Shown here one piece after another: positions 5,000 through 60,585 of a DNA stretch of 64,000 nucleotides; position 1 is the stretch's first letter, and the number at the start of each line of letters is the position of its first letter. The notes beneath the pieces were generated by a model, which did no database searches, was not told where the DNA came from, and saw nothing but the letters and a program-made list of their open reading frames with translations. Position numbers and translations under genes: made by a program. This DNA comes from Rhizaria sp. SCN 62-66 (Eukaryota), in assembly GCA_001724265.1 (NCBI GenBank), contig MEDY01000115.1, forward strand, positions 1-64,000. Direction: 5' to 3'.

Positions 5000-5958
5000 T
5001 CAGAGCTCATCCTTGTTTCCACTGCTGCTGCCGTTAGCAGCATCCTCACTTCCCACGGTGTTGTCGTACTCCGCATCCTCGTCGGGATCACGAGTCGGGA
5101 AAAACACGCCATCCTCCGTCACCCAGTGTGTGTTGTCATCCTGCTGCGCCGATGCCGACACCTCAAGCTGTCCAACAATCGGGCAATTACGGCAGTTTTG
5201 CTGGTTAAACGCATCGGCACGACGCGCGTACAGGGTTTGACCTGTGGGAACGTGGCGGAAACGGACCGGATGAGCGCGCTCCCAGTGGGTAGCGCCGGAG
5301 CGGATGCACTGAACCTCCCAGTTATCGTCTGAAGCATAGAACAACGATGCGAGAGCAGAACAAAAGCAAACAGAGCAAGGAACGAGATAAGGATGAGCTG
5401 AGTTTGATCAACATCACTGCATAGGAAAGGAGTCTTGACTACAAACTAAATAGAGTACCAAAAAGAGAAAAAAGCGCGATACAGATATACATATATTTGC
5501 AGAGAAAAGCGTGATCCAGAGAGAGTGTGCGTACCGCCGTTGGAAGACGCGGAGTCGAAGGCGCTGACTTCCTGGCGTCCACTGAGCGGCGAGCGGTGGT
5601 TGTGGGAGTGCAAGAACTTGTTCGTATTGCTGTGCAACAGGCGGATAATAGCGCCACAGCGAATGGCGTCGCCGTAGACGCAGGGCGGCTGTCCATCACC
5701 TTCACGAATGTTCCACAGGTCGTTGGTATCGGCGGGCGTCTTGCACGCAGTGACAGACTGTTGGCCAGAGCCAGAACCCCAGTTGATGGGGTGACTGTGG
5801 AGCATGTGCTGCGAGTTCTTGTGCTCAAGCTTCATCGTTGAGCCGCAGGTGACGAGCTTGTACTGCGGGGCGTCCTCGGCGAGAGCAGGGGAAGCCGTGG
5901 TGGAGACGAGCGCGATGGCAACGCAGGCAATGAGCGCCAGCCAGGGGCAGTACCTCAT
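5000..5958 (-). CDS. SDF2: Stromal cell-derived factor 2-like MIR-domain ER protein, 250 aa; exons 5958-5535, 5328-5000
   Basis: Signal peptide; VTCGSTMKL, LHSHPINWGSGSGQQSVT, LHSHNHRSPLSGRQEVSAF, GDDNW across the splice junction, WVTEDGVFF; C-terminal KDEL; TGA stop. Confidence 0.93.
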
Positions 5959-6367
5959 GGACAGCGGGCTGTGGGGCACAAGGAACAATGAGGAGAACGT
6001 GAGTAAAAATGAAGAAAGTTGCGTGCGTTTTTATCGCCAACATATCAGAATTAGATCATTTGACGTTGAACCGGTGACACAATAGACTGCGTTTGTTTTG
6101 CTGACCGTCCTCGATTTTTCTGGTCGGATCGGATTTTTCGGAACCGACCAAATAATTTTTGCTGCCACCACAAACCAAAACCGATGAACCCTACTCTTTG
6201 CTGCTTTGTGGATGCGCTCTAACAATCGTCACAAGCGTAAATGAATAGATGACCCAGGTTATCACTATGGTTACTATATGATATATCAATGATATACTGC
6301 AAGGTTCTTTTCTTACGTCAGTATCTCTCTACTAATCTGCCCCTACCTTCTCAGTCCCACACCTTCG

Positions 6368-8357
6368 ATGTCAGCCGACGCCCCCGCTGCCTCGGCTGCT
6401 GCTGCAGCAGCTACAGCAACAACTGTGGCCGACTTCCCCGCTTTTCGTGACGCCCAGTCTGGCACTATGGGTCCCGCACCGGACGCCCGCATCATTAGCA
6501 AGTTCCCCGAAGGCGTTGATCTGAGTAACATCCGCAAGATCATGGCTGCTGCTGCGCAGCTTAAGAAGAGCGTGATTGCCGACGTCGACCCCTTCTGGGG
6601 CCGGCTGGCGCAGTTCACGCCTGATACCGACATCGAAGCTTTTACTGAGTCCCTTATTGACAACTACCACAGTACGTTTACGTTCGCTATTGATTCATTC
6701 ATTCTCCCACTCTTCGATATCCTCAACGGCGAACGATCTAACTGTTTGTCTTCTGTTCTGGCTGTGTTGTTTCTGTTATGCAGCGGATTTTGCGGTCGCG
6801 TGGACCTTTTGGCCCGATTTTCTGGTCCAGATGATGTACGCCGGCTGGCTCATCACTGCTGACTCGACGGGCCGCAAGAATGACGGCTCCTTCAAGCTCC
6901 AATGGCCCCTCCCCAAGCTCCACCAGTACGTCATCACATCTTTTGCACAACAAATTAAAGCAAAGAATATAAAACACAACGTGTGTATAAGTTTGAACAT
7001 ATATTTCCACATTCTTATTCCCTGATCTTTGCTGTGATATCTTGGTTTTTCCTATCAATACCAACAGACAGCGTTGCCTGCTGACCGACTGGTCCAAGCT
7101 TGCCGTCCACAGCAGCACCCTCCGCCGCGCAGCGCGCTACCGTCTCAGCTTCAACCTCGACCCCGAAGCCACTCTGCTGCACTGCGTCGAACAACACGGC
7201 GACTCATGGCTGTACCCTGATCTCCGCACTGCGTATCTCGCGATGATGAAGACGAACCACACGCGCTCCACAGTACACGTGTGGGGGGTTGAGCTGTGGC
7301 GCCGCGCGACCGAGGAGGAGCTCGAGGAGCAGCGCTCTCTCGCCGCGCAGCTTAAGGAGGCGGGGAAATCGCGCCCGGACGCGCCTGACTTCGGCAAGCC
7401 TAAGTACGCGACCGTCGGTGACACTGTTCGCAGGATCATCGAGACACCCAACGCCAAGAGTAAGGTGAAGTCGCTTGCGCTGCCCGGATGGGTCATGGTT
7501 GCCGGTGATCTCGGTGCGAGCGTTGGTGGCAGCTACTGCTCGATGACTGGATGGCGCGATCAAAGCGAGGATGGAGCTGGAACGTACGTCTAAAACCTAC
7601 ACAAAATACGCTCTATATCACGCTTATCTTATCATCACCAATATTAATTTCCCCAAAAAGCTTAAAATAACCTTTCACATCTATTAACCTATTTTTGTTT
7701 GTTTCGGTACGATATCGCAGCGTTTTGCTTGCTGCACTGGGCCGTCACCTGTGCGCCCGCGGTTTCGACTTCTGGGACTTTGGCATGAGTATGCCGTACA
7801 AGCAAGAGCTCGGCGCAGTCAAGGTGCCGCGCCGTGCGTTTGTGACGAAGCTGCGCAAGACCCGCGAGCGCACTGGCCTCTGGCTGGGTTGGGGCAACGG
7901 GACAGCTAAATCTCGCGATAACGATGAGGATGATGCAGAGTCTGCTCCTGATGGCGCGCGCAACGCTAAGGATGTCATCAAGGACGGCGCCGCCCGCGCC
8001 AACGACAGCGGTGACGCCAACAATACCAGCAAGGATGCTAAGGATGCTAAGAGCGCGAAGAAGACCGACGGAGCCGCCAATTGCACGACTGCTAACGCCG
8101 CGAACGCTGGCGAGGCTGCGACTGATTCCGGCAAGAGCTCTGATGCTGCTGCTGCTGCTGCTGCTGACGCTGCTGCTGAGGGTGCGGTGAGTAAGCAACA
8201 GCAGAAGCGCGACGCTAAGGCTGCTGCGCGCGCGCAGGCTGCTGCTATGACTCCAGAGGAACGCGCTGCTGCGTTTGCTGCGAAGGGCGCTGAGATTAAG
8301 GCCAGGCAAGAAGCCGCCGCCGCCGCCGCTGCTGCTGCTGGTGCGAAGAAGACTTGA
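6368..8357 (+). CDS. Leucyl/phenylalanyl-tRNA-protein transferase (Aat)-like / ATEL1-like aminoacyl transferase, 532 aa; exons 6368-6671, 6784-6925, 7068-7583, 7721-8357
   Basis: Motifs PKLHQQRC, CVEQHGDSWLYPDL, VWGVELW, MVAGDLGASVGGSYCSMTGW, GAGTVLLAALGRHL, GFDFWDFGMSMPYKQELGA-VPRRAF follow the order of the L/F-transferase C-terminal domain. Three GTACGT..AG introns keep the frame. TGA stop. Confidence 0.8.
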
Positions 8358-10037: not shown

Positions 10038-13000
10038 ATGTCTCACCACAACAAGCACCACCAAAACCAGCAGCTCTCTCAGAACACCAAGTCACACCAG
10101 AAGCAGCAGCCACAGCAACAACAACAGGGTAAAGGCCAGAAACAGGGCAAGCAAGGCGGCGCTGCCAGCAGTCCCGGCAGTCGCTTCTGCGTTCTGGACA
10201 CCAGCAGCAGCGAAGGCGAAGACGAAGAGAACGACGACGACGACGACAACGACGACGGCGGCAACGTTAACAACAACGCTAGCAGTGGCAAGACTGCTAA
10301 CCGCAACTCAAAGTATCAGCCGCGGCTAATCGACGTCACTGTCACTCCTGACTCCGACGACAACAGCTCGATGCTTCGCAACACGTCAGCTCTTACGGCG
10401 TCAAAGCTTCTCTCCCAGCTCACTCTCTCAACGGGCGTTGCGCTCGCGACAAGCTCCGGCTCCTCTACAGCCAGCTCTAGCTCCAGCTCTGGATTGAGCG
10501 GTGGCCACAGCGCGGGGGCGGATGTTCTGAACGCAGCGCTGCCAGAAGTGGAGCTCTCGACCGTGGCCTGGGTAGCTCGTCGGCAGCGGCAACAGCAGAC
10601 GCTTTCGCTCGACTCGCGGCCCGAGCTCCAGCGCGCCGGCGTTTCTGCCGCAGCCGTCGCGGCGACAATCTCGGGTAAAATCCCGCAGAAGGAACTCCCT
10701 GTGAACGCGCTGGCGGCGGTGTGTCATGATATCGTGCTTGTTGACTTTGAGTGCACATGCGAAGCCGGGCGTAACCCTGGTTTTGCGTATGAAATCATCG
10801 AGTTCCCCGCTATCCTGATCGACGCGCGCACGTTACTTATTAAAGACGTGTTTCACACGTACATCAAGCCCTCTGAACGGCCTCAGCTGTCAGAGTTCTG
10901 CCGTGAACTAACCGGTATCACCCAAGACGTGGTCGACGCTGCGCCTGAGTTCCCCAGCGCTATGGCCGCGTTCTCCCTCTGGCTCGACAAGTGGGGGCTG
11001 AGCTTCCCTGCCCTGACGGCGCAAGCGGCCTCGCAGCCCCCCGTCCCTCCCCCCGGTTCCGCCGCCGCCGCCGCCGCTGCCGCTGCGGCTGCGGCCGGCG
11101 TACACATGACTGGCAAGAAAGCTCTTGCTTCAGTCAGCGCTGCTATGAGCAGTGGCGGCAAAGCGCGGCGCCTCGCGGCTGCGGAGGCGGAGGCAGAGGC
11201 GGAGGCGGAAGACCCGGCGTGGGTTGTGAGGCGTACGCCCTTGCATTCGCTGCTCTCCCCCTTGGTTGGCATCCCTCCAACCTCCACAACTTCCACAGCC
11301 TCAACAGCCTCAGCCTCAACAACAGCATCAGGACAGCACAATAAGCACTATGGGACGCATGTCGTGCATCCGTTGAACGCGCCGGTTCCTCCGCTGTTCG
11401 CGACAGTGAGTGGCCACCTGCTTTCGCCGGCATTGCAGCATCACCAGCAGCCGCTTGAGAAGGAGAAGGAGAAGGAGCTTGGACTCGAGATTCCCCAACC
11501 GGTTTCAAGGTACGTACGCTTTAAATTTTCTCTAAACCAAATATTTTTTTAAATCTTTATTGTATTCGTTTTATTATTTAAGTTATGTTTTATATTATGC
11601 CGTATTTTCTGCTTCTTCATCATCTTCCTCACGTTTTGCTTGTGTATGTTTTACCTTTTTAGGCGTCGTGCGATTTTCGCGTGCCACGGCCCCGCCGACG
11701 TGGGCGCTTTTCTCGCCCGCGAAGCCAGCCGCAAGGGCGTTGACCTGCGCTGGGCTCTGCGCACTGGTCTGCCCGGCAAGCCGATCGCAGCTCAGCCGGC
11801 AGTATCAACGCCGTCGCCGGTCAATACGAGCTCTCCTGCGGCGGCTGCGTTCAGTCCTCGTAACGGAACTGCGAAGTCGCGGAAGACCGGTAAGACGAGT
11901 TTCACCTGCCCTCCGCTTGACGACGACAAGAGCTCAACTACTACTACTACTACTACAGGCGATAAAGACGATAGTGCAAACAACAGCGCTATCAACGCCA
12001 GCGCGAGTGCGAGTGGAGCAGCTGGAAGCGCGCGTGTGGATAGCAACACCAGCGCAAGCGCGAGTGATACAGCGTGCGCAAGCGCAACAACCAGCAGTGC
12101 GACTGTGGACAACGACGCAAGCGCAAACACGGGCTTAAACGCGAATGAGAACACGGAGGTCAACTCATGCAGCAACAGCAACAGCAGCGCGCCTGCGCCT
12201 GCGCCTGCGAGAGTGAGTGCGAACGACGCTAGCAAGGCAGTTCATAAAGGCAAGTCAACCCACGTCTCTGCCGCCAAGGCTGCCGCACACATTAAGGGTG
12301 TGCCCGCGACCGGAAAGGGCGCGCCTGCATCTGCCTCAACGCCGCCGCCGAAGCTCTTCAGCTCCGGCAACGGTTTGCCAGGTTCACGCCGTGCCGCGGT
12401 CACCTCAGTGGCGAAGAAGCTCACCAACCTCGCGTCACAATACCCACCGGAGACTGTGCTAATGCCGTATATTGATATCCGGTACTCGTTTGCGTTGATG
12501 GCGCGCGCACTGAGGGCGCAGAAGAAGCTTGCTACGGGGGCGTATTCGTATACGGTGAATAATATGCTTGCGATGCTTGGGTTTTCGTTCATTGGGCGCC
12601 AACATGAGTACGTACTCAAAACATGACATCTCTCGATAATCATTGATATTCCGCATATATATTACTTTACGATCTGATCATGATAATGACTTATTTGTCG
12701 CGCCTTTTAGTGCGATGCTTACGTATTTTGTCTCATCTTACTTCTCACTTTGTTGATATCAACGCTGTTTTGTCTCTTATCAGTGGCATGGCGGACACAC
12801 TGAACATTGCCCGCGTGTTCACAGCAATGGCACAGACAGAGCATTACCCGTTTCCCAACGATATGTTCTCGTTTGATCCCGTGGAGGAAGCCACTGAGGA
12901 GACTCCTGCAAACAACAACAGCAACAACAATAGCAACAGCAGCAGCAACAACAACAATAACGATGACAGCGCTGGAATCTCGGCGAGTCTAGCTGATAAT

Positions 13001-17870: not shown

Positions 17871-18379
17871 ATGGCCGAGGTTGGCTCCGAGCGTCTCGCG
17901 ACGATCAAGTCGGCTGATATGTCACTTGACATGCAACAGGACGCAGTCGACTGCGCAAACGCTGCGTTGGTACGTCTTATTTCGCGCTTGCTTTGTTCAT
18001 GCCCTCTTACCCTGGCCCTTTAGTCGACTTCACTAACCCGCTCTCTGTGTTTCTGGTTGTTTCTTGCCTTGCGTAGCTTAAGTATGACGACGAGAGCGAT
18101 GTCGCTGCATACATCAAAAAGGAGTTTGACAAGAAGTATCACAACAACTGGCACTGCATTGTACGTCTATTCATATCTCCTTAAACCGTCATGTATACTC
18201 TCAAGTCTACATTTTGTCTCGAGCTGTTCCTCTTCTCACTTCTTAACGACCTTACCCATGCTCTCTCGTAAACGCCTAATCAGGTCGGCCGCGGTTTCGG
18301 CTCATATGTCGCGCACAAGGCACATATGTTTATCTATTTCTTTCTTGGTGAGGTCGCAATCATGCTCTGGAAGTGCTGA
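17871..18379 (+). CDS. Dynein light chain LC8 family, 92 aa; exons 17871-17969, 18077-18160, 18284-18379
   Basis: [84 protein letters not shown] stop. Confidence 0.95.
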
Positions 18380-19254: not shown

Positions 19255-22200
19255 ATGCTTCGCATGCGGTCTGTCATGCGCACCTCTGTGCGCCTGCAGA
19301 GCAAAGTGGCTCCTACACTGACCACCCCGTCCAGCTCCCTCTCCAAGCTCGCCTCGTCGCCTCTTGCAGCGTCCCGTGCAAGCTCCCGCTCTGCTGGCGG
19401 CGTCTCCGCGCTGCTCTCCGCCACGAACGTGACTGCGATCCCTCTTGACATTACTCGCGTTGTCACGTTCACCCCTTCCCTCGCCAAGGCTGCTGCTTTC
19501 TCCACCACTGCTGCTGCCCCCGCTGCCGCCGCCGCCGCTGCTCCTGCTGCCGCGAGCCTGGCTCCCCCCGTCGTCGCCGCCGCGGCCGAGGCGCCCAAGG
19601 TTATCGGCTGGCGCAAGCTCGCCCGCGCCTTCGGCGTTCTCTCCCCGTCCCAGCTCCTCAACGACCCCGCCAAGACGGGCTTCAACCGCTGGTCGATCGT
19701 ACCGGCGGCTCTCGCGACCCACATCTCGCTTGGCTCCATCTTCGCGTGGTCGCTGTTCAACCAGCCGCTGATGACCCTGCACGGCGTCGTCGCCCCCGCG
19801 GCCGCTGACTGGGAGCTGGGCTCCGTCATGCCCGTGTTTTCGACGACAATGGCCTGCTTCGGTATCAGCTCCTTCGCGCTTGGTCGCATGGGCGTGTTTG
19901 AGAAGCTCGGCCCCCGCGCCACGGGCCTTATCGGCTCCGCTCTCTTCGGCACGGCGTTCTCCATGGCCGCGATCGCCACGCAGACCCACTCGCTGCCGCT
20001 GCTGTCGGTCGGTTACGGCGTGTTGGCCGGCGTCGCAGTCGGCTCGGCCTACGTCAACCCTATCTCGACTCTGCTCAAGTGGTTCCCTGACCGCAAGGGC
20101 GTCGCCTCCGCCATGGCTGTGATGGGTTTCGGTGGCGGCGGCATGGTTGCAGCGCCCATGATCGAGACGCTGCTTAGCAAGTTCCGCCGTGCGCCCACGT
20201 ACGTCGGCAAGCTCGGCGAAGTCGCCACTGTCAATCAAGACGGTAAGCTGTTCGTCGACATCTCCACGCTGCCCGACGCTATCGCGACTGCGGCAGCGTC
20301 GGCCCCCGGTGTGGGCACTCTGCGTGAGGTTGTTGTCGCCTCCACGTCGTCCCTCGCCAAGATCAGCGCCGAGATGGCCGCCACCCTCCAGGTACGTCGA
20401 TTTTCTTCACATTTCAACAAGCAACATGTGTGTGCTTGGTTTGGTGTTATGAGGGTTTGGTTTCGTTGAGAAACATCCTGGATAAGCTCTGGCCTTTCAT
20501 GTGGTGTGCTAAAATGTAATGCTATGTAAAGGGCGGATATATCAACTTCCAAGTTTAGAAATGTAGTATTCCGATGTAACTCTGCATTCTGCAATATCTT
20601 TATTTGTTTTTTCTTTCAATTCATCTTGATCTCATCAATATATCCATGATTTCTAATATTTTTGCGACTCCACAGGAGGGCCTGTACATCGTCGGCACTG
20701 GCTCCACCGGTCTCCCCGAGACCTTTGCCTGCCTCGGTGCCATCTACTCCACGGCTATTCTTGCCGCCGCGTTCGTCTTCCGCCTCCCTCCTGAGGGCTT
20801 TAACCCCGCTCTGAAGACCCTCGCTGCCGCCACCGCCGCCACCACCCCCGCCCCCGCCGCCGCTGCCGCCGCTGCCGCTGCTGCCCCCGCGGCCCCTGCG
20901 GCGCCCGCTGCTGCGGTTGTGCCCAAGGGCCACGAGTACAAGGCCGTCGGCGGCAACGTCACCCCCGCCCAGACCCTCAAGACCGCGCAGTTCTGGCTCG
21001 TCTGGTCCGGTATGGCGCTCAACTCCGCCGGCGCGTACGCGATTATCGGCGCTGGTAAGACGATGCTGACGGATATCTATGGTGGCGCGTATCCGGCGAT
21101 TGTCACGTCGGCGTTTGCGGCGACGTTTGTGTCGATTATTAGCGCGTTCAACCTCGGCGGCCGTCTCGGCTGGGGTGTCATTGCTGACAGTACGTACTCA
21201 CACAAAACAAAGCATATCTCAGACTGACCGTAGAATGTGGATCTCAAATGTATCGGTGTGATTTACAATGTAGTTTATTGTTGTCAATATTGTTTTTAAC
21301 CACGATTTAGTCATCTTGGTCTCTGGATGCTCACAACATGATCTGTCTCCCTGCTACTTTGCGTGTGACTTGTTGTCCGGTCATCGCTTCCACCGTCATT
21401 GTTTTGTACATGTTGTTTTGCGCCTGATTTGTAGGCATCACCACCCGCAAGACCTTTATGTGGATGTGGGGTCTCGGTATCCCCATGTACCTCGCTATGC
21501 CCGGCTCTGCCCACCTCCTCCAGGTCTGTCACTGCTTCCGCCTTATATTCTACCCCTGCCTATATATTTAAAATTCAAGTTGATATTGCGTGTATCTATC
21601 TATACGTTTAGTTTTAGCCCATAGCTCACATATATTTCCTCGACGTCAACGTATTTTTTTTGGTGTGTATCATTTAGGATATGCTCCCGGCCATCGCTGC
21701 GCTGTCCGACGCTTCGACCGTGGTTGAGCGTGCCGCTGCGTACGCGCCCCTGGTCATGTTCTACTCTTCGGTCATGATTGCCATCTCCACGTTCGGTGGC
21801 TCTGCCGCCGTTTCCCCCGCGTACATGGCTGATCTGTTTGGCAGTAAGTATGTTGGTGCGATTCACGGCCAGCTGTTGTCGTTCCTCGTGCTCTCGGGCT
21901 ACGCGGGTCCTCTTACCTGCACCATCATGCGTGAGGCTTCGCTCCGCGATGCGTACGTTTCACAACATCGAATTCATCTCGAGCATAACTCTCAACTATT
22001 GTGTAGGAACACACTTTTGTATTGATTTCGCCTTAATGACACCGACTCCAATTGCAACTTTGTAAGAATGCTTTGTATTGCAGTGGTAATCTTATATTGT
22101 AAATATGACTCACATCATTGGCTACATGTTTGTTCAACTCGTTTTGTTATTTGTAAAATATAATGTAGTATCTCCAAGCTCGCGTCCGCTGTCGACCCCG

Positions 22201-27911: not shown

Positions 27912-27943
<32 letters not shown>

Positions 27944-42100: not shown

Positions 42101-45100
42101 CGCCGCCGCGTCCAAGGCCGCCGCCATCGCACCCCGCGCCGCGCGCGCCGCCGCCGCCGCCCGCGCCAGCGCCAGCGCCAGGGCATCCGCGGTCACCGCG
42201 ACGCCTGCGCCCGCGGTGGCGGGGGAAAAGTACCGCGCGGCGGCGTCGGCGGCGGCGGCCCGGACGCGGACTGCGAGCGCGACATCCGGCATCGACTGCC
42301 AGAGCACGAGCGAGTGTGAGAGTGAGTCTGTCGCCAGGAGCAACGCGGCGGCGTCGGCCGCGGCCTCGGCGAGAGCTTCGCTCGCGCTAGCGGCGGCGGG
42401 ACTGAGGGACGCTTGAGAGGCTTGAGAGGCTGAGGTTGTGATGGCTGAGGGGAGGCCCTTAGGCCTGCTGCCACCCCTAGCCCTGCCAGACTTAGACTGG
42501 CGCTGGCGGGGACGTTTAGAGGTAGCGCCGCCCGCGCTCGCGCTCACATTCGAGTAGGAGCCAATAGTACTGAGACTGGTGTAAGTGGCACTTAGAGCAG
42601 AGTACATGGCGCCAGTAACGGCGAGCAAAGGCACCAATTCAGCCTCAAAGCATCGTAGAGCTTCTAACGCGCTCTGCGCAGCGCCAGTAACACGCGAGGT
42701 ACTCATGGTACTTGTGATGTTTGTGCTAGGGTTGTGGGAGAGAGATAAGAGACCAAGCGTGGTGTCAGTGGCCTGTGTGTGCAGGCCCGCCATTGCAACG
42801 GCCCCGAGACAGGACTCCGAGGAGCTGTCTAAGTAGCCATTAGACGCGTCTAAATACCCGCCGGTTGCGCTAGTCGGACACAACGCAGCGTCAGCAGCAG
42901 CCAACACAATAGCAGTGCTTACATGGGCATTGTTGACCGCACCAGGAGCGTAGACGCCCCGCGCTTGACTGTTCGCGGTGTTCTTTGCCGCGTGTGCGTT
43001 CGCGTTGGTAGAAGCAGGGTAGAGAGCAGCAGCAAGAGCGGGTGCCCACGCTGGAGCAGCAGGCAGGAATAATGCCGCTGTAGGCACACTCACGACCACA
43101 CTGTGATATCAATAATATCAAAAACCAAGATTCGGGATATACAACAAACAAGATGAGAGTGATGCAAGGAAATATTTTGCCTAAGCATAATTTTTTTACA
43201 ACTTTTAGCACGTAAAAAACGACATCGTTACAAATGAAACTGTTAATCGTGAGATATCTAGGTTTGAGTGAGATAGACGAACCTTTCTCCAGCGCCGCCC
43301 CCGCCGACAACCCCACTCAACCACCCTTTGTTGCTGCTGGCGCTGCCGCCGCCGCCACCGCCTGTGCCGGCCGCACCGCCGGTGAGGGCCAGCCCCGCCG
43401 CGTCCGTGCCCATCGCGGACCCCGCCGCGCCGCCCGCGCCGCGCTGCCACACCGCAGCCAAGGAGTGCTTCAGGCGGGCTTTGCCGCCCGCGTGGAGGCG
43501 GTGTAAGGGGAAAACACTTGCGACCGGGGGCGTCAACCGGGCGGGGACAGAGGGCCAGGGCCGGGGGTCAAACGCCGCCGTCGCAGCCGACTGCAGCGCG
43601 ACAGAAGCAGCGGCGGCGGCAGCAGCAGCAGCAGCAGCGGCGGCGGCGGCGGAGCCCGAGCGCGTGCCTGAGTTGTTGCTATTGGCAGGTGTCGCAGTGT
43701 TGGCGAAGCGGGCAGCGTTGAACGCCGAGAGCGCTGCGAGAGCTGTGGTGTTAATCAGAAGCGGGAGTCGAGGGTCGGCCGGGTGCAAGGCGACGGATTC
43801 GGGGCTGAGCTGCAGGGGCGCGGCGGCGCGGGACCACGGCAAGGCCGCCCAGTCCTGCGCTGCGCGGTGGCTAGACAGAGCGATGCCCGTGACTGTTGAC
43901 GGGGGAAGGCTGGACGGGTGGCGGCCGCCGCCGCGGAAGCCGGAGCCGCCGGCAGTGGCGACGGCGGCGGCGGCGGAAGCCAGCGCTGTGCCAAGATAGC
44001 TACGGAAACAAGGGGGCGCAAAACAAGAAAAAAAAGAGGGAAATGCGTGTGAGGCGTGGAGTGAAAAAAACGTAAATATGATAACACTGATTAAAGGTAC
44101 TTTTTGGAGATAATCATTTCTAGTTTTGGTGAGAGATATGTTGACTTACGCAGCGGTAGTCGCAAAGGCTTTGCGGGCCAGAGGGGCGAGGTGAGTGCTG
44201 GCAGCTGCCGACGCAGCAGCTGAGGCTGCAGCGAGCCGGGAGCTCGAGCCAGAGCTTGCGTTTGCAGAGGCAGCAGCGGCGGCAGCAGCAGCGGCGGCTT
44301 GCTGTTGTTGTTGCTCTTCGCGCTGTTTGCGCTGCTGTTGCTGCAACTGCGTCTGTTGCTGCTGCAGTTGTTGCTGCTGTTGGGAAGGGAACGCGTGAGC
44401 ACCAGCGCTCACCGCGTACACGACAGAATTCGCGTTTGCATGAGCACTCGCATTCGTGTTGTTGTTATTGTTGTTGCTGATGTTGTTAAAGATACGAGAG
44501 ACGAGGGCGATGCCTTCAGCACGCGCGCGGAGTAACAATTGCGCCTCCGTCTCCCCTGCTTCTTTACTATGGGCGAGCTCCTGGCGGCTTAACTTATCCG
44601 CGTTTTGGGGCAGTCCCATCTCTGAGCGCACTCCATGCAACGCTCGTGAGAACAACAGAGAGCCATAGTTGGCGTCCGTGAAATCCCCCGCCTCGGTACT
44701 ATGGGACGCACTGTTGTTATAGTAGTCGTAGTGGAAAGTGTCGTCATCACAGAGCCAGGCGCGTGCAAGCGCCTTGGCCGCCAAAGCCCGTGCACTGAGC
44801 TTATAGCTATACGCAGCAGCAGAACTATGGGAACCCGTGACCCCACATGTACTCGCGGCAGCACTTGCACCGACGCTATTGTTATAGCTGCCAGTAGAGT
44901 TGTTGTGATAGATGTTGTTGTTTTGGGCCGTGACCGTGACGCCGGCGCGCGCGGCGCGTGCTTGACGCCTGTTTTCCGCCGCTGCGGCGGCTAAGCCTGC
45001 GCTCATGCTCTCCACAATCTCCCCAACCACCGCCGCCGCCGCCGCCGCAGATTGCGACGGCGACTGCGCCTGCGAGGAGGTGTTCTGAGCATATGTGGGT

Positions 45101-48100
45101 GAGAAGTGACCCATAGCGCCGCCGACGGTACTAGTGGTGTCGGCGGGGTACTTAGCCGAGATGTAAGTATCCGGGCCCCTTACAGCGCGCGCGACGGCCG
45201 CCGCCGCCTCAGCTCCCCAACCAACACTATTAAACCCACCACCGCCTTGAGTACCGTGGGTTCCTGCGCCGTTGTTGTTAGTGTTGTAATGACCAGTACT
45301 CATGTCGAAAGCACCCGCACCGCCGCCGTTAGGACTGTGAACAGCATGTGTACCCGCACCCGTGGGTGAAGTCATGTTGTTCCTCGTGCTATAACCCCCG
45401 GAACCCGTGACCCCTCCGCCGAAGCCGGTGAGGGTGCCCATGGCCGACGCCACGGGCAGCAACGCCGGCGCCGCCGCGTGCGTCGCCGCGGTCGCCGCGC
45501 CGCCAAACGCCCCCACCGCGAACAAGTGCACCGTGCCGTTGACTGAGGTGAGAGCCACCCAGCGTCCGCAGGGGGAGAAAGTGACTGCGGTCGGCAGGGC
45601 ACGCGTGGCGCCGCGTTGCAGACGGCAGCGGAGGGCGGTGGAGAGGTACGCGGGGGCGGGCGCTGGAGTCAAGGTGGGGGCGGGGGCGGCGACGGCGGCG
45701 GCGGCGGCGAAAGAGGAGCCTGGGCCGATCGCGCCCATGACACCGCCGGCAACGGCGCTAGAGCTCGTCACCCCGTTGCTGCTGGCGTTGGAGGCGGCGA
45801 TGGAGGAGATCGAGCTGATCAAACGGGGCTGAGTCAGTGCCGTCGTGCGTGCCAGCAAGAGGGGAGGGCACGGGGCGGCGGCTGGGGTCGAGCCGGGAGC
45901 GTAGATTGAGGCGGAGTGCGCGGCAGTGGCGGCGACGATGGCGGCGGAGAGAGCGTCCTCTTCGTACTGGCTCATGAAGCTAAAGCAAGGCATGCAAACG
46001 CAAGAGATGTTGTAAGAAATAACACATGAGACAAATCTGCGATATAAGAGAATTTAGATCTGGATTTTGATACATACGCGAATTATTCCATAATAAATAA
46101 TATATTCCATAGTTAGATCAATCAACGAACATATATATGCGAATAGTGACTTTTACGACTTTTGATATCTCGTACCTTGCAGAACCCTGAGCGTTCGAGT
46201 GTTGTTGCTGCTGCTGCTGTAAAGGGGCAGTAGGCGGGAAAAACAGCGTCGCCTGCGCCGGCGCCGTAAATCCGAGCGAATACAGCCATGCCTCTTGGCC
46301 GTCCTCGGCCGCGACCGCGAGACATCCGCCTGCAGCGTCGAAGCTCAGCGCGGCAACGGGTGCCAGAGAGTCTGTTTTGACCGCTGCGACGACGCGCTTG
46401 GTCCAAACGTCCCTCACGAGTACCACACCCGCCGTCGCCGCTGCAGCGCGGACCAGGGACGCGCGGGTGGTGGCAGGACCTAAGAAAGACAGGAGGTCGT
46501 GGAGCTCGGTCGCTGCGGCCAGCGCATTCGCGCTGCTACTGCTAGCGTTGTGAGCGTTCTGACCGGCACCGTGAGCGGGATTCGTGTTCGAGCTGCTCGC
46601 AGAAGGGGTGAGGGGCGTGAGGCGAGGGGACGCGCTCGGGGTGGTACTTACATTGACGCCAGAGGTACTTACGCTCTTGCCAGCGCTACTGCTGCCGCTG
46701 CTGCTACTGCTGCTGCTGTTGTTGTTGGGATTAGCGTTGTTGTTGGCGTTGTTGATGTTGGTGTTGTTGCCAGTAAGGGCGGCGGCACTACGGCGAGCGT
46801 ACGAAGCGAGTGTCGACGTCCACGATGACGACGACGAAGAGGCGTTTGCACTCGTAGGACTCGAAGCAGGACCGTTTGCGCCAGAACTAGAGCTTGAGCT
46901 AGAGCTATTAGTGCTTGAGGTGCCGCCGGATTTAGAGGTGTCGGCTGTAGTAGAATTCGACTTATTAGCACCATCGACCGCGTTTTCAGCCGTATTCGCA
47001 CTGTTGTTGTTATTGTTATTATCGAGAGATTCGAGGCTATCGGCAGCCGCATTTGCCGCCGCCTCGGCCGCCGCCGCCGCCGCCGCTACAACCGCGCCTT
47101 TCCACCGCGAGAATATCGCCGGAGCCGCGGCTGACAGCTGCTGCACCACCATTGCCGGGTCGGCCGTGGCGGCCAAGACGCGGCCGCGGGCGCGACCGGC
47201 GCCGGTGACGGTCGCCGCGGCGACGGAGTGCAGTGCGATGCCCAGAGCAGCGGCGGCCACAGCAGCAGATCCTGGAGGATATTAAAGCCACAACAAAGAA
47301 CAGAGAAAATAAAATTGGTGAAATATCTTACAGAAATAATACATTATTACTCGTATTCATTCATACACCATAGTTTTGTTTTCATGGGGTAATGTTGGTG
47401 TCTTCAAATCATAGATTTAGTGCAAATCAGCGTTTGTTAGAATGTGTGTGATTTGAGGAAACATACCTGAGGCAGAAGCAGCTGCAGAGCGTAATGACAC
47501 AGCGGCCGCAGCCGCAGCTGAAGACGCTGTGGCAGCCGCAGTCGTCGCGCTTGCGTAAGACGCGATAAGTGCATTCGTGAAACCTTCCTCGTTCGCGGCG
47601 GCTGCATTTGGGCCGCCGCCACCATAGGCAGTACTTAAACCGCGCTCACGTGAGGTACTTACATTGTACCCGCTCGAGTCGCCGCCACTGTAAGTCCCTG
47701 CGCTGCTCGAGCTAGCGGTGTGAACAGAGTGAGAATGAGCGTGTGCATTAGCGACGGGCAGAAACGGCTGCAACCAGGCACCAACCATCGTGACAAGAGT
47801 CTGCCTTTGCACCAACCCTTGCCCTGCCAGCCCGCCGACCGCCAAAGTCGACACATTGCTGTTGTTGTGATTGTTCGCGGCGGCAGCGGCGGCGGCGAGC
47901 GACGCGAACGCACTCGCGGTCGCCTTAAAGAGCAGCGCGAACGCTTGCGGGGAGAGGTAAGAGCCCTCGCCCATGGGTACCGGCGGCGGCAATACGCCCT
48001 GCACGGACACACCACCGGTACTCATGGGGGTACCCATGCCTCCTCCGTGCTTCGCGCTGTTGGAGGAGTAGATCAAGTGCGAGCGCGAGGTCGACAGCAG

Positions 48101-50415: not shown

Positions 50416-51196
50416 ATGGCGTCCCGCTCTGCGACCGAGACCGCTCCCGAGCACATGGTGAGCCAGGACCTGCTCACCCACGCCGTCAACGCTAGTATGA
50501 TCGATTACATCGATAAGAAGGTCGTTGTCACTATGCGCGATGACTGCCAGATCGTCGGCCGCATCCGGTATGTCCTAATTACCCCTCTTTACATCTCTGA
50601 TCGGTTGCTCAACTGCCTCACTCGCCACTCCACTTGATCCCCACTCATCATAACGCCCCGCCCCGCCCCGCCCTGCTTTCTTTCCACATACAGCACGTTC
50701 GACCAGTTCAACAACATTGTTCTCACCGATGCTTCCCAGCGCTACTTCTACAACGGCACTTACGCCGACAAGAGCGTTGGCTCCGTCATGATCCGTGGTG
50801 AGTCCCTCGCCTACGTCGGCGTCCTCGTACGTACTATTAATATGTTGCAAACAAGTCTAATCGTGCCCGAGGTCTTGCACACCTTATCATCCTTCTACCT
50901 TGCTAAACCTGTATGCATTGTCGTTCATGCTGTGTCGCTATGACCTATCTTAGTTCTCCCCTACGCACGCAACGTCTCACATCTCCACTCGACTTCTCTT
51001 CTTTCTTCTCCTTGTTCACCACGACTGCCTTGCACCCATATGCTGCGATTCGGCTCTCACTGGATATATACAGAACGAGCGCAACTATTCCTTCCGCGAG
51101 GTGACCAAGGACGCGCTGTTCCAGGCCCGCGAGGCTGCGGGTCTCCCTCCGCTCACCAAATCAACCAAGTTCGACGCCTTTAACGGCGGCCACTGA
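50416..51196 (+). CDS. LSM1: Sm-like protein LSM1, 135 aa; exons 50416-50567, 50694-50826, 51074-51196
   Basis: ASMIDYIDKKVVVTMRDDCQIVGRIRTFDQFNNIVLTDASQR..GSVMIRGESL, plus a C-terminal extension typical of Lsm1. TGA stop. Confidence 0.85.
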
Positions 51197-52657: not shown

Positions 52658-55160
52658 TCACTTCCCACTGTTCGCGGTGTTTGCAACACTCGCACCAACC
52701 CCAGCGCCAGTGCCAGCGCCAGCGCCAGTGATGCCGGCGTTAGGCATAGGCGCGGACAGAGGCACAGTCGCGGACGCAACACCGCCCGGGAGCACCATGC
52801 TTGCCAGCGGCAACGGCGCCGCGGCCGCAGCAGCGGCACTCAGAGGCAGGAGAACCGGCGCGTGTGTGTGCAAAGGCCCCTGCTGCTGCGCTCCGGTGGC
52901 GGGAACAGCGTTCGCGCCAGCGTTCATCGGATGACTCTGCTGCTGCTGCTGCGGCTGCTGCTGACCCGGGTACTGCTGGTGTTGCTGTTGGCCGAAGGGA
53001 CCGGTAGGGAAGCCGGCCCAGGACTGCCCGTGGACACCCCGTACACCTGCCGCGTTCCCGTACGGGTACTGGCCGTACGCACCATAGCCGCTGGTGTTGT
53101 TGACGTTGTTGGTATTCCCGTTCCCGCTGGCGTTGGCGCTAGGGTCGACGTTTGTACCGTATACAGCAGCGCTGATGTGTGCGAACAGCTTCGGCGCCTC
53201 GCTGCGGTCAAATGACAGCTCCTGCTTAAGAAACTCCGGGTACTGAACACCTGCCAGCGCAAACTCAACGGGCACATACCGCATGCGCGCGGACCGGCGG
53301 GACGCAATGAGCTCCATCTTGATGAACCGCGCGGCGTCGGCGTCCTTCAAGCTCACCGCGTAGGACATCTTGTGGTAGCCAACGTCGGTGGGCTGCTTCA
53401 CTTTGAACCCGGTCAAACCGCGGTACGCCGCCACAACGTCTTCGAGAATGCCAAGCTTAACGGCGGCGGCGTCGAGCTGCTTCGCGTGCTGCTGCTGCGC
53501 CTGCGCGGCTTCCGCCTGCAGCGCCTCCGTCAGCGCGGTTTGCGTGTGCAGCAGTGCAGCGAGCTTCGACAGTTCTTCGTCCTTGGCGGCTGCCTGCTCA
53601 CGGTCGCGGCGCTGGCGTCCGGGGCTCGGCAGCGCGGCGCGATGCTGCGCGTTGATGCGAGATATGTGCTCCTTGAGTTCTGAGATCGTGCGTTCGCTCT
53701 CCGACTCGCGCGCGCGCCAGAGAGCTTCAGTACGCGTGCGTTCAGCGGCGACGGCGGAGTCGACGGAGGACTGCAGGGCTTCGTAACGGCTCGTAAGCTC
53801 GTTGTAAGCCTTCTGCAGCGCAATGTAAGCCGCGGGACTCGTGACACCCGCGACGGTACCCATGCCAGCAGCACCCGCACCAGAGCCAGTGCCGGCAGCA
53901 GCAGCAGGAATACCCGCGCGGAGATTGCTCGACGACAACGTAGAGGCGAAGTTAGAACCCGCATTGCCTGCGGTGTAGCTTGCGTTGTGCGCAGTAGCAG
54001 CGTTGGCGGCGGCCGAAGCGGCTGCGGCAGGACGAGGGCGTTTGCTGTTGAAAACGAGGCCACTGTCATCGTCCTCCACCGCAGCGCCCCTGATGCCACC
54101 ACCGACAGCGCTGGCACTACTGCTGCTGGAGCTCGAGCTAGCGTTGTTGTTGATGTCGCTGCGAGCGCGGGAGTTGGTGTTGGCCGCCGAAACGAGCGAA
54201 GGAACAATCGAAGGTGCGAGCAGAGTTGCGTCCAAGTCAACCGCGTTGGTATCATCGTTGCTCTCGAGGCTATCGCTAACGCTGGCGACAGCATTGAGAC
54301 TCTTTGCAGTGCTAGACACCCGGCCCTTAGCTGCCGCACTAGTGGCCTTGCCACCGCCTGTCACACTGGCACTGCTAGAGCTCGCGTTGTTGGTGGTGGT
54401 GTCTTGTTGTGAGCCGCCTGAGGCTTCCTGGGCGGCTTGCCTTGCGTAGAGGGCCTTCTCCTGCTCCGGCAGCTCAGCCCAGAGCTGCTTGATACGAGAC
54501 TTAAGCTCGGCCATGGTCAGCAGCGGCCAACGCTCCTTGCAGGGTCCGATGGTGGTGCTTGCGAACAGCGCGAAGCCGGACTCCGCAGTGTACAGCACCC
54601 TCCCCCCGGCCACTGCCCCAGAGGCAGTCGCAGCGGCATTCGCGTTGTCCGCCGGGGCGGGCGCGGGGGTCTTGCTCTTGATCGCGCTTGCAGCAGGTTT
54701 GCTCGCAGCAGCAGCCGCAGCAGCAGCGGTAGTTGAGGAGCGTTTGGGGCGGGACGGTGTGGCAGCGGCGGAGGCTGAGCTTGGCACGGCTGAGCTCGAG
54801 TCGCCGTTGCCGTTGTCGCTGTCTTCAGATTGCTCCTCAACAATGGGGGACGCGAGGGCGCGCTTGCGGCGGGCGCCAGGGGTGGCTGCGGCAGTGGCGG
54901 TGGTCGTCTTGGGGGTTGTAGTCGGGGTGACTGCGGAGTTGGCGGCCGAGGTGGAGCGGGCTGACGAGCGACGCGGCGCCCGGGCTAGAACGCAATACAA
55001 ACACAAAAACAAACCAGAAATACAGTGTGAGAGTAAGACATAAAGCAATTTATTATGTGAATAAGGTTTCATAGCGATAGAGAGACGTTGAGTTGAGAGA
55101 GTCGGGAAGGGGAAACGTACCTGACTCCGAAACCTTGGTTGAGGAGGAGCGGGTCGACAT
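52658..55160 (-). CDS. HMG-box + coiled-coil + Csm1/Pcs1 (monopolin)-like RWD domain protein, 788 aa; exons 55160-55121, 54984-52658
   Basis: HMG box SGFALF..MAELKSRIKQLWAELPEQEKALY; heptad region; C-domain YRGLTGFKV..MRYVP..YPEFLKQELSFDRSEAPKLFAHI, resembling the Csm1 pattern LTG..Y-P..P-YL-E-I-F----A-KF. TGA stop. Confidence 0.72.
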
Positions 55161-56638: not shown

Positions 56639-57974
56639 TTACGCCTGCTTGGCGAAGAACTCCATGGACGCAGTGCGGTTAGGCTTGATGGTGTCCTTTC
56701 CGGGCTTCCAGTTGGCGGGGCAGACTTCGCCGTGGGCGGCGACGAACTGGTAGCCCTGTAGATGCGAATATATACGCAATTGCGTATAGTCCAGCCAAGC
56801 AACAGACACAAAACAGATTTGATAGAATACGTGTTAGTTTCAGAATGGTTATTCGTTTTTGAGTATTTGAGTTCAAGATGAACCCAAACCAAGCTCAAGC
56901 TTTAACAAAGCACGAAGCGAGAATTATGAAGCTATCACAGGGCAGAAAACAATCGTCGCTAAGATAGATAATGGGATTCAAAAAAGAGTGTTTGCGGAGG
57001 ATGATGGCGTACCTGGACGAGGCGGAGGATCTCATCGACGTTGCGGCCGACAGCGGGGGAGTTGAAAGACGCGTGCTTCAGGGTGCCCTTGTCGTCGATG
57101 ATGTACGTAGCACGGCAAGTGAAGCCGGGGTCCATGAGGCAGCCATAGTCCTCGGAGATCTTGCGGGAGACGTCGGCCATGAGGGGGATGTTGAGGTTGC
57201 CGAGGCCGCCGACCTTGCGCTCAGTAGCCATCCACGCCTGCAGAGAGTCAAAGCAAAAAAAGCCAAATTGCCGCAATAGAAGCGAAAGAAAAGTATGAGC
57301 ATGAGCAATTTGACTGAGAATTTTGATTGAAAGATGGTTGAAAACAAAGCTAAAAACCTAAATCACTGTTATACATACACATCCGTATGATTTGAGTACA
57401 CAATCACGTTTCGTGAATGAGATTACAGAGATACATATCGTGATACTTGTGTGCGTACCTGGTGGACGTTCTCGGAGTCGATCGAGGCAGCGATGATCTC
57501 GCAGTTGGCAGCCTTGAAATCAGCAGCACGGTTGGAGAGCTCAATGATCTCGGTGGGGCAGACTGTGTAGATGCAGCGCAAAAGCAAATGAAGAGGGTTT
57601 GATATTGAATGAGGAGAGAAAAAGCGGTGGAAACTTCAGTATGGGTGCGCGCAAGCACGAAAGAGCGAAACGAAGGAACCTATCGAATGAAGAGATATAG
57701 CACAGTTAAATTAGCATGCAAGATAATGTAAATAGTGTAATTACGTACCGAAGGTGAAGTCCTTGGGGTACCAGGCCAGGACGACGTACTTGCCCTTGTA
57801 GTCATCGAGGGAGATCTTCTTAAGGGAAAGGTCGGGCATAGCAGCCATCGACTCGAACTTGGGGGCGGGAGCCTCGATCTTGGCCGCCTTGCCGAAGGAG
57901 ACGGCGCGGGAGACGGTGGTGATCACCGAGGAGGTGGGGAGCTTGGTGGAGATCTTGGAGACGGAGCGGAACAT
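56639..57974 (-). CDS. Typical 2-Cys peroxiredoxin (AhpC/Prx1), probably mitochondrial, 223 aa; exons 57974-57749, 57562-57459, 57237-57013, 56755-56639
   Basis: [41 protein letters not shown]; Ser/Thr/Lys/Arg-rich, acid-free presequence. TAA stop. Confidence 0.96.
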
Positions 57975-58607
57975 CTGCGCAAATCGGGCGTTGACGCAAG
58001 GGGGCAAGGTAAGTGACGGAGGATGACGATGAGGTCACGATTCAGCAAAACGAGTCATGGCATTAACCAATATAAACGGCTGTATCCAGACATATACATA
58101 ATAAAAATAGCAATTTGAACTCTAACAAATTCTATACGCGTCAAAATCAATCCAGTTCGATGGAGAGAATGAGGTCAAGTGAAGCTTGGTTAAAGCTGGA
58201 AAAATCGTCGTCAGTTGTGCCCTCGCTCGCGCTCGGTGGTCGGTTTTGGGGGTCTCGGTGATTGCATCACACTGAAGCTTACTAGGCATAACTTGAAGGA
58301 ACATTAGATAGACATGCATCGACTTAAATTGCCGGCCGGCATATAATTGAGCATCACAATTTTAAATGTTTTCTTTGGTTTTCGCTGCTTGAACTTCATT
58401 TTGTATGTTGAAAAACGTATAACTTACACTTAGCCTCAGAGTCCGCCCTCAGATAGCATCCTCACTCAAATCTAAACAACACTGCTCTCTACGCAGTCAC
58501 TTTCACTCACTCACATCATCAACGTATATACACAGACAACTATACCATGTGTCTATTTGTCGGATCTCAGGCGGCGACTTAAATTATTGCATCGCGGCTT
58601 GACTTGT

Positions 58608-60585
58608 TTAATCCTTGGTGATCTGGCGGCCAATGATGACACGCATGACATCGTTGGCACCCTCGAGGATCTGGTGGACGCGGAGGTCACGGACGATCTT
58701 CTCCAGGGGGAAGTCCTGTATATAACACACAAAAGACAACACGCAATTTGAAGCGATTCAGAGTTGGAATCGGATCATGACGGTCGAGACAGAGAAACGA
58801 GAAGAGAGAAGGTGAGATCCAAATGTGAAGAACTCCCGGGGACAAATACATATGTCACAATAAAAATGAATCACAAACGTGATAATACGTAAATACATTT
58901 AAACATTATATATAGTTCCGCATGTAATTATACCATTGAGATATTGCTGTTGAAAGATGAGAACACGTACCTGGAGGTAGCCGTAGCCGCCGTGGAGCTG
59001 CAGCGCGTCGTTGGCGACCTTGGAGCCGATATCAGTGGCGAAGCGCTTGGCCATCGCGCAGTGAAAGGTAGCCTCGGGCGCATCGGCGTCGACGAGCGAG
59101 GCGGCACGGTGAACCATGAGACGGGCAGCGGTGAGCTCAGTCGCCATGTCGGCGAGCTTGAATTGCACGCCCTATACTCACATAGAAACAAAGAATTGAA
59201 GACATAGATGTTAGTATATTTCTGTAACAATAAGAAACAGAATTTTGGTATAGATAATACATATTAATACTTAGTTTTAGTTTACGTATCGAGTATATAA
59301 TCAAGAAACACTTTGTTTTCGTAACCGTACCTGGAGAGTGTTGAGGGCAGCGCCGAACTGCTTGCGCTCAGCAGTATACGCACTCGCAGCGTTGAAGGCT
59401 GATTGGGCACCACCGAGCGACAGAGCCGCAATGTTAATGCGGCCGCCGTTGAGACCGTGCATGGCGGCGTTGAAGCCCTTGCCCTCGACACCACCGATAA
59501 GGTTCTCGGCAGGGACGACGACGTTCTCAAGGAACACCTTTAGAAGGCAACGCATGAAGTTGCATAAAGTGAAATTAAAAATAGAAGATCGTAACATTTC
59601 AAGCTTAAACTAGCACAGCACAAAGATATAGTAGCAATACATATGAATCCATCGCAATAAATTATGTCGATAGTCTATTTATGAAGATATATATGAAATG
59701 AGTGAACGTACCTGGGCGGTGGTGTGGGCGTGCCAGCCCATCTTCTTTTCCTTGGCGCCGAACGAAACACCGGGCATAGTCTTCTCAACGAGGAACGCGG
59801 AAATACCCTTCGCGCCGGGGCCGCCAGTGCGCGCCATGACGATGTAGTAGTCACTCTCACGGGCGCCAGAGATGAACACCTTCTGGCCGTTGAGCACGTA
59901 GGTGTCGCCCTCCTTGCGTGCGGACGTCTTAAGTGAGGCCGCGTCGGAGCCGGCGTCGGGCTCGGTAAGGCAGTAGGAGGCAAACTTGCTCAGGTTGGTC
60001 ATCTGGGGCAGGAAGCGCTGGCGCTGCTCGGGGGTGCCGAACTTGTCGATCATGTAGCTGACCATGTTGTGCACGGTGAGGTAGGCAGTGGTGCCGGGGC
60101 AGGCGGTGGCGAGCGCCTCAAAGATGAGAGCAGCGTCGACACGAGAGAGGCCCATGCCGCCGACGTCGTCGGCGATGTAGACGGAGGCAAAACCCATCTC
60201 GGCGGCCTTGAGGTACATCTCGCGCGGGAAATGACGCTCTTCGTCCCACTTGGCGACGTAGGGCTTCATCTCCTTCTCGGCGAAGATGATCGCGGACTCC
60301 TGCAGATACTCATAGAGCAAAACAAAATGTGGATATTTAGGTACAAGCTCTCGTACTGCATCATTCAGTCGTTTTTGAAAGGGATACTACTAGTGGGGGT
60401 TAGATAACGATAGGACGAACCTGGATAGAGCGCTGCTCGTCGGTGAGGCCGATGGTGGGGTCGAACTTCATGGCACGGCGCGCGGCACTGGCGTGGAAAG
60501 ACGCGGCCGCAGTCGCGGAGACGGCGGAGGATGCCTTAACGGCGGCGCGGCCGAGGGTGGACTTACTGAGGCGGGAAGCAAGCAT
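58608..60585 (-). CDS. ACAD8: Isobutyryl-CoA dehydrogenase (acyl-CoA dehydrogenase family 8), mitochondrial, 422 aa; exons 60585-60421, 60299-59712, 59537-59331, 59171-58971, 58715-58608
   Basis: [76 protein letters not shown]; mitochondrial-type presequence. TAA stop. Confidence 0.93.

Follow-up and report, generated by a model that had tools for sequence, protein, structure and literature searches.

A dominant C at position +4 of the 5' splice site in spliceosomal introns on nuclear DNA from an uncultured eukaryote of wastewater-type metagenomes

The 64,000-nucleotide (nt) stretch of contig MEDY01000115.1 analyzed here (the window) carries GT-AG introns with the strongly constrained donor consensus (C/A)AG|GTACGT, which departs from canonical GTAAGT at position +4. 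C occupies this position in 27 of 32 rebuilt introns (25 GTACG and two GTTCGT donors) and in 18 of the 20 introns with independent support, in agreement with the +4C dominance that an earlier note, made from the sequence alone, had claimed for the introns of 5329..60420. The introns are of the ordinary, major U2-type spliceosomal class, and the GTACG motif is almost certainly a splice signal rather than a repeat or a modelling artefact. As to its origin, the window has a word-index share of 1.00 in one bioreactor metagenome run, of 0.82-0.87 in three more runs (one bioreactor and one wastewater metagenome plus a run without organism label) and lower shares in cDNA-type libraries (wastewater, activated sludge). 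Because of these metagenome shares, it is regarded as nuclear DNA of an uncultured eukaryote from bioreactor or wastewater metagenomes.

The survey started from a list of all GTACG occurrences on both strands, many of them located after CAG and followed by AT-rich sequence. To avoid circularity, the intron caller knew only GT and AG and employed a codon-usage score trained on long open reading frames (ORFs) together with a 3-mer model of the intron body, which was trained on the interiors of RNA-confirmed introns minus their first 8 and last 4 bases. At most ORF-to-ORF junctions, a GTACG site was the top choice of this caller. The resulting catalogue comprises 32 introns between 5329 and 60420, spread over at least 15 different genes and 55 kb, all with GT...AG termini (32/32), lengths of 107-284 nt and G+C contents of 26-55%, which makes them AT-rich next to the GC-rich exons. 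The interval of the earlier note begins where intron 5329-5534 (-) has its acceptor end and closes with the donor of intron 60300-60420 (-), and 32 of the 33 donors it had listed were reproduced. The remaining one, cag|GTAGGC, could be assigned only to a possible intron in a 5' untranslated region (35081..35231, -), deduced from sequence only, and was left out of the catalogue. For 20 of the 32 introns there is independent support, from RNA joints in ten cases and from homology or Pfam continuity in another ten (eight plus the two LC8 introns), while 12 were modelled from reading-frame continuity and composition.

Among the donor hexamers, GTACGT (18) prevails over GTACGC (4), GTACGA (2) and GTACGG (1), and the rest are GTTCGT and GTATGT, found twice each, and single cases of GTCTGT, GTATCC and GTAAGT. 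Position by position, A is found at +3 in 29/32 donors and G in none (0/32), G at +5 in 31/32, T at +6 in 24/32 and G at -1 in 22/32. The 3' regions of the introns are T/G-rich and the branch sites appear degenerate, with a YTRAY branch-like motif within the last 80 nt of only 18/32 introns at scattered distances.

For obtaining RNA evidence, contigs of four runs were compared with 41001-61000 of the window for spliced joints; 15 of 71 joints were listed, and the contigs give no expression levels. Contigs from X5 and X6, cDNA-library runs of one sample which are flagged as possibly largely DNA, contain exact spliced joints at at least ten predicted introns, nine with GTACG donors and one with GTATGT. 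The X5/X6 joints, representing ten sites in five genes, all show GT..AG (or CT..AC) termini, and such joined forms with canonical ends are best explained as cDNA from spliced mRNA. For the other 22 introns, there is no RNA joint among the 15 of 71 listed. Long-range joints skipping 1110-7760 nt were disregarded, as their sides consist of 19-23 nt in low-complexity repeats. Unspliced sequence was found as well: a contig of X4 (library type not recorded) is unspliced through 45720-46678, across intron 45980-46175, and a contig of the poly(A)-library run X8 (56696-56982) continues unspliced from the peroxiredoxin gene's last exon into the neighboring intron. The latter reflects either intron retention or DNA carry-over and, therefore, unspliced RNA or DNA is also present. 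In the LSm gene (50721-50796, 51049), one X4 contig differs from the window at 14 positions in about 330 nt, while X5 and X6 match the window there, which points to another strain, allele or paralogue being present in that sample.

Homology supports a further set of junctions. The spliced models of the acyl-CoA dehydrogenase (ACAD), major facilitator superfamily (MFS) and ERI1-like genes are free of internal stops and aligned across 11 junctions in total. The five-exon ACAD model and protein P0002 align without gaps along the full 384 residues, with 77% identity, thereby covering four junctions including that of a GTTCGT intron, and the six-exon MFS model gives one single high-scoring segment pair (HSP) across its five junctions. 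In addition, Pfam profiles continue over junctions in the LC8, peroxiredoxin and ACAD genes; for example, the LC8 profile runs from position 26 to 27 across intron 17970-18076.

Compared with the background, the motif is enriched at donors to a degree that excludes chance. Only 120 of the 7699 GT dinucleotides on both strands of the window (1.6%) are part of GTACG, resulting in binomial probabilities of 5e-16 for at least 9/10 and of 2e-39 for at least 25/32 such donors. GTACGT occurs 45 times versus 24.2 ± 5.3 in shuffled sequences, with 18 of the 45 copies being donors, and on the exon sense strand (35.5 kb) it is present only three times, never after AG. Since the exonic copies at 20199 and 57789 are demonstrably unused, the latter as caa|GTACGT just 41 nt upstream of the used donor at 57748, the hexamer alone is insufficient for splicing. 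The only CAG-preceded exonic GTACG, cag|GTACGC at 40913 (-) within ORF 40346-41287, could be an unrecognized or alternative donor. Several GTACG occurrences outside introns are explained by repeats at 3500-4400, an AT-rich intergenic region dense in short GTAC- and ACTAGT-based repeats such as GTACTAGTACTA and GTACGAGTACGA.

That the motif is not spliceosomal but due to a local or sampling effect, an introner family with shared ends or mis-modelled introns is highly improbable. In favor of such an artefact, 12/32 introns are based on ORF logic only, one contig covers little of a genome and GTACGTAC recurs at four donors; on the other hand, 20/32 introns have RNA or homology support, 17 of them with GTACG, they are distributed over at least 15 genes and 55 kb, and a caller blind to the donor motif beyond GT preferred GTACG at most ORF junctions. 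An introner family was rejected after all-against-all blastn of 31 introns, which returned only matches of 10-16 nt in 38 weak pairs (best E 0.038), i.e., no intron-to-intron similarity above chance. As the introns lack shared sequence, the motif represents a splice signal instead of a family of repeats. A U12-type reading was considered for the GTATCC donor at 29375. U12-type introns start with [AG]TATCCTT and have a TCCTTAAC branch box located 10-26 nt before their 3' end. The donor in question continues with AC and not with TT and a TCCTTAAC box is not present, and this reading was dismissed.

Public proteins of relatives give an additional hint. These have been predicted by prokaryote-style gene callers, which read from the exon into the intron, and their tails consequently report the first intron codons. 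In P0004 (ACAD, 61% identical), homology ends at the residue of the window intron with donor at 59330 and is followed by V-R-T, and the same V-R-T follows in P0091 (57% identical) at the position of the intron with donor at 59711. The ERI1-like P0121 (about 57%) ends with QH-K-Y-V-L at the position of window intron 12608. As GTACGT reads V-R in phase 0 and x-Y-V in phase 2, all three tails (VRT, VRT and K-YVL) fit this hexamer, which is suggestive of relatives having GTACGT-type donors at common intron positions. P0121 reads straight through the position of the 153-nt window intron 11510-11662, yet its homology stops at 12608, as though it were interrupted by an intron at this point as well; hence, introns are present or absent differently among the relatives.

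With respect to mechanism, the relation between exon and intron sides of the donor is informative. Where G is missing at -1, nine of ten donors are perfect GTACGT and the tenth is GTAAGT, and 13 of the 14 donors departing from GTACGT have G at -1, again with GTAAGT as exception (Fisher p = 0.019, n = 32). Over positions -3..+6, donors show on average 7.2 matches to CAGGTACGT versus 6.4 to CAGGTAAGT. A trade-off of this kind between exon and intron is what recognition through a helix of some minimum length usually produces and, because donors without -1G are almost all perfect GTACGT, it hints at +4C adding to recognition strength rather than being a tolerated mismatch. The hexamer would accordingly be read through base pairing with a partner that has co-evolved. 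This partner would most likely be a U1 small nuclear RNA (snRNA) with the 5' end ACGUAC instead of ACUUAC, placing G opposite +4C and allowing for up to nine Watson-Crick pairs with CAG|GUACGU. In the preprint by Roy and Bowser (10.1101/2022.06.08.495308), precisely this change is reported for U1 of Mastigamoeba balamuthi. On balance of the analysis, a co-evolved U1 (ACGUAC) is tentatively favored as the most likely mechanism. The more specific scenario that an aerobic-looking, ACAD-bearing and non-archamoebal eukaryote has independently evolved this G5 U1 (ACGUAC), forming a perfect nine-pair helix with CAG|GUACGU, appears possible but somewhat doubtful. If true, the Mastigamoeba-type U1 would have arisen a second time independently, and no cleaner case of full co-evolution between U1 and the 5' splice site at +4 would be known.

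Several points weigh against a compensating U1. The compensation test comprises just 32 sites, 12 of which were modelled from ORFs only. Scanning metagenomes for a G5-type U1 (5' end plus stem-loop I loop) with a strict pattern of low power resulted in three loci (L001-L003), none of which was matched by Rfam at E <= 0.01. The tails of the relatives' proteins are ambiguous, with VR also fitting GTRAGR and YV also fitting GTATGT. Moreover, according to the preprint (10.1101/2022.06.08.495308), a standard U1 is kept by Thecamonas and Mamiellales, two of the three lineages for which +4C has been published. As most lineages with atypical +4 have retained canonical U1, the base rate favors an unchanged U1. 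Likewise, the organism is probably not an archamoeba, and a G5 U1 would thus require an independent origin.

Accordingly, a second explanation deserves nearly as serious consideration, although it falls short of an even chance: U1 and U6 may both be standard and +4C may be set elsewhere, for instance at the hand-over to U6 and U5, by loss of METTL16 (and thereby of N6-methyladenosine, m6A, in U6) or SNRNP27K, which the earlier note had proposed alongside an altered U1 or U6 sequence, or by a change in another protein such as Prp8, U1C or LUC7. GUACGU pairs with canonical U1 everywhere but at +4, the window's +3A, +5G and +6T being the canonical U1-complementary bases, and the preprint describes just this situation for Thecamonas trahens and five Mamiellales (GYGCGY), which combine +4C with standard U1. 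It likewise reports standard U1 in 69 Saccharomycotina despite +4U, and also in Giardia and Trichomonas, which are +4U lineages too (10.1101/2022.06.08.495308). In line with the background given by the earlier note (+4A with METTL16, +4U in yeasts with loss of METTL16 or SNRNP27K), the study of Parker et al. (2023; PMC10581693) links the preference for +4A versus +4U to METTL16 and SNRNP27K and finds the ACAGA box invariant in 240/240 species while the +4 preference switched. In the same account, however, loss of U6 m6A is associated with +4U, which can pair with A, and not with +4C. Two observations from the window also disagree with standard snRNAs, namely that GTAAGT, the best partner of canonical U1, is represented by only 1/32 donors and that +4C persists in 9/10 of the donors whose exon side is weak, instead of giving way to +4A. 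METTL16 and SNRNP27K are not among the window ORFs, which at 64 kb is uninformative for the genome. A changed U6 with unchanged U1, in which G takes the place of the central ACAGA A that faces +4, allowing U6 to pair with +4C in both the B and the catalytic complexes, is distinctly unlikely. It has a precedent in the A-to-U change at the central ACAGA base of Cyanidioschyzon merolae U6, cited in Parker et al. (PMC10581693), and the compensation between -1G and the hexamer cannot separate U1 from U6 pairing. However, ACAGA is among the most conserved RNA sequences, as reflected by its invariance in the 240 species, and is retained in Entamoeba despite GUUUGU donors, as stated in the preprint (10.1101/2022.06.08.495308). 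In any case, a dominant +4C alone does not imply a changed snRNA, since the published +4C lineages differ, M. balamuthi having a compensating U1 and Thecamonas and Mamiellales a standard one.

The earlier note was right in calling +4C atypical, but the literature provides precedents in M. balamuthi, T. trahens and Mamiellales. The window donors therefore join a small known class, as a lineage-specific +4C consensus is rare but documented, and are nevertheless distinctive in differing from the canonical hexamer at +4 only and in matching a U1 variant known elsewhere. In the literature searched, with subscription journals mostly outside its scope and the Thecamonas logo given as figure only, no organism is described as having GTACGT/GUACGU as genome-wide consensus. 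A close counterpart is Mastigamoeba, sharing +4C, a GC-rich genome and similar intron size (60.7% GC and 3.4 introns of 137 bp per gene in M. balamuthi; PMC8136499). Its U1 ACGUAC is the exact complement of the window's GUACGU, giving Watson-Crick pairing according to the preprint, whereas its own donors read GUGCGC, with +3G and +6C (10.1101/2022.06.08.495308). In addition, Archamoebae (M. balamuthi, Entamoeba) have lost acyl-CoA dehydrogenase and beta-oxidation (PMC8136499), in contrast to the window with its complete and expressed ACAD gene, which bears four introns and a presequence-like N-terminal exon. Because this mitochondrial-type ACAD is encoded, the organism is probably not an archamoeba.

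As described in the preprint, Mamiellales (Ostreococcus, Micromonas and Bathycoccus) resemble the window in a tight donor constraint that includes +4C and +5G, but differ in having +3G and strong canonical branch-point motifs, as opposed to +3A in 29/32 donors and apparently degenerate branch sites. Members of the Mamiellales live in the sea as picoalgae and have very compact genomes, unlike the source of the window, which stems from wastewater and has introns of 107-284 nt. Thecamonas trahens (Apusomonadida) is a heterotrophic protist preferring +4C, but it is described as intron-poor, with canonical branch-point motifs being common; no Thecamonas protein is found among the named best matches of the ACAD, ERI1-like and MFS exons. 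With GUAUGU of Saccharomycotina, the window shares a pyrimidine at +4 and a tightly constrained hexamer (PMC10581693); the yeast +4U, however, pairs with unmethylated U6 A, which C cannot, and the yeast branch site is rigid, while that of the window is not. Entamoeba donors, GUUUGU with co-evolved U1 ACAAAC (GUUUGUU and AACAAAC in the longer form), are likewise atypical and near-invariant and serve as model for the favored mechanism of a compensating U1. They are distinguished by +3U and +4U and an AT-rich, intron-poor genome, and the compensating U1 has actually been found there, according to the preprint (10.1101/2022.06.08.495308).

At +4 of the 5' splice site, recognition by U1 passes to the U6 ACAGA box, and how the preference at this position evolves is an active question for which METTL16, SNRNP27K and co-evolved U1 have all been proposed. 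Very few lineages prefer +4C and these are split on U1 compensation. A further, apparently independent +4C lineage is a useful test case, with only +4 departing from canonical GUAAGU, and one snRNA sequence would tell whether splice sites or machinery have moved. On the practical side, gene finders trained on GTAAGT will mis-model the genes of this organism in wastewater metagenomes.

Of the introns with RNA joints, all seen in both X5 and X6 contigs unless stated otherwise, the first lies at 41211..41360 (-; gag|GTACGC, 150 nt) and the second in the BCAS3-like gene at 45980..46175 (-; aag|GTACGA, 196 nt), the latter being the intron left unspliced in the X4 contig. The LSm-domain gene contributes 50568..50693 (+; ccg|GTATGT, 126 nt) and 50827..51073 (+; ctc|GTACGT, 247 nt). 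In the peroxiredoxin gene, introns are located at 56756..57012 (-; cag|GTACGC, 257 nt), where the AhpC-TSA and 1-cysPrx_C profiles additionally show continuity, at 57238..57458 (-; cag|GTACGC, 221 nt), also with Pfam continuity, and at 57563..57748 (-; tcg|GTACGT, 186 nt). The isobutyryl-CoA dehydrogenase-like ACAD gene is interrupted at 58716..58970 (-; cag|GTACGT, 255 nt; joint in X5), 59172..59330 (-; cag|GTACGG, 159 nt; P0004 breaks off there) and 59538..59711 (-; cag|GTACGT, 174 nt; P0091 breaks off there), all three being covered by the P0002 alignment as well. Its fourth intron, 60300..60420 (-; cag|GTTCGT, 121 nt), is supported by the gapless alignment to P0002, whose residues 1-17 end at 60421 and which resumes from residue 16 near 60305.

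The other homology-supported introns are on the plus strand. In the ERI1-like gene, the junction of 11510..11662 (aag|GTACGT, 153 nt), an intron absent in P0121, is spanned by the HSP between spliced model and P0121, and splicing of 12608..12783 (tga|GTACGT, 176 nt) restores the GRQH-x-G..D..NIA motif of P0125, P0122 and P0123; the composition caller by itself resulted in a tie between the latter donor and a GTATAC site at 12548. For the LC8 gene, the Dynein_light profile covers positions 2-26 in the ORF upstream of 17970..18076 (ttg|GTACGT, 107 nt) and 27-56 in the next ORF, and at 18161..18283 (att|GTACGT, 123 nt) the profile ends at 56/86 with the exon, the scan comprising the first two exons. 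The five MFS introns, all included in one HSP, are 20392..20675 (cag|GTACGT, 284 nt), after which the P0135 tblastn HSP resumes at 20676; 21190..21434 (aca|GTACGT, 245 nt), with no internal stop upon splicing; 21524..21677 (cag|GTCTGT, 154 nt), supported by the spliced-model alignment and the caller; 21953..22168 (tgc|GTACGT, 216 nt), with P0135 residue 482 ending at 21950 and residue 484 starting at 22170 besides the spliced model; and 22365..22591 (cag|GTACGT, 227 nt), with P0135 homology and the spliced-model alignment.

Reading-frame continuity and composition underlie the remaining models. On the minus strand, 5329..5534 (gcg|GTACGC, 206 nt) belongs to the MIR-domain gene, with MIR in the upstream exon. 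Three introns follow on the plus strand at 6672..6783 (aca|GTACGT, 112 nt), 6926..7067 (cca|GTACGT, 142 nt) and 7584..7720 (aac|GTACGT, 137 nt). Intron 23949..24116 (+; aag|GTACGA, 168 nt) marks the start of a long low-complexity ORF, and the weak putative intron 29375..29541 (+; aag|GTATCC, 167 nt) joins ORFs 23993-29419 and 29527-33300. The other minus-strand introns of this group are 34763..34986 (tcg|GTACGT, 224 nt), 40228..40402 (caa|GTACGT, 175 nt), 43101..43282 (aag|GTTCGT, 182 nt), 44000..44149 (tgc|GTAAGT, 150 nt), which has the sole +4A donor, 47272..47466 (cag|GTATGT, 195 nt) and 54985..55120 (cag|GTACGT, 136 nt), the last one modelled from sequence and ORF context.

Over its 64 kb, the window has a G+C content of 54.8%, with short AT-rich stretches lying between the GC-rich coding blocks. 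Pfam matches identify genes for a MIR-domain protein, an ERI1-like RNase_T exonuclease, the dynein light chain LC8, an LSm protein, a BCAS3-like WD40 protein, a peroxiredoxin, an acyl-CoA dehydrogenase and a short-chain dehydrogenase. The ACAD is nearest to isobutyryl-CoA dehydrogenases; the exon searched matches mostly alphaproteobacterial proteins at about 60% identity, with two green algae as the only named eukaryotes among the matches listed, and the ERI1-like exon matches only unnamed metagenome proteins and fish ERI2. Best matches of the OFA-family MFS transporter (19252-22771, +) are bacterial (38-47% identity). The gene has five spliceosomal introns and an N-terminal extension, and it may be an old horizontal acquisition which gained its introns afterwards.

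No tRNA genes were found within the window, and neither snRNA nor other Rfam families were detected there at gathering thresholds, nor any snRNA at E <= 1, with six sub-threshold Rfam matches representing miRNA or sRNA noise. Prokaryotic genome contigs were scanned for contaminating relatives. The first scan gave none, and the five loci from a second scan, four bacterial homologues and a 19-residue match, do not include a relative of the organism either. At 6997-7590 (+), inside a eukaryotic gene with several introns, a weak match to the bacterial-type leucyl/phenylalanyl-tRNA protein transferase was obtained (21 bits versus a cut-off of 22.7).

The regions 23993-33300 (+) and 36121-40227 (-) contain very long ORFs of 1809, 1258 and 1369 codons with low-complexity runs of Ala, Ser, Thr, Asn and Gln and without any Pfam family; the first two (1809 and 1258 codons) may form a single gene of more than 3000 codons via the weak GTATCC intron. 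Between 13600 and 17000, about 3.4 kb show weak coding scores in all frames and no Pfam match, so that this region may represent either the remains of a mobile element or a gene under rapid evolution. Finally, at 833-2137 (-), a 435-codon ORF without match to any Pfam family encodes a secreted-looking protein that has a hydrophobic tail and, in its C-terminal part, a Cys-rich module some 50 residues long. Searching a representative library with this ORF gave 1303 matches at E <= 0.001, mostly to the Cys-rich repeat, which is present there in up to 33 copies in proteins of 1000-3000 residues.

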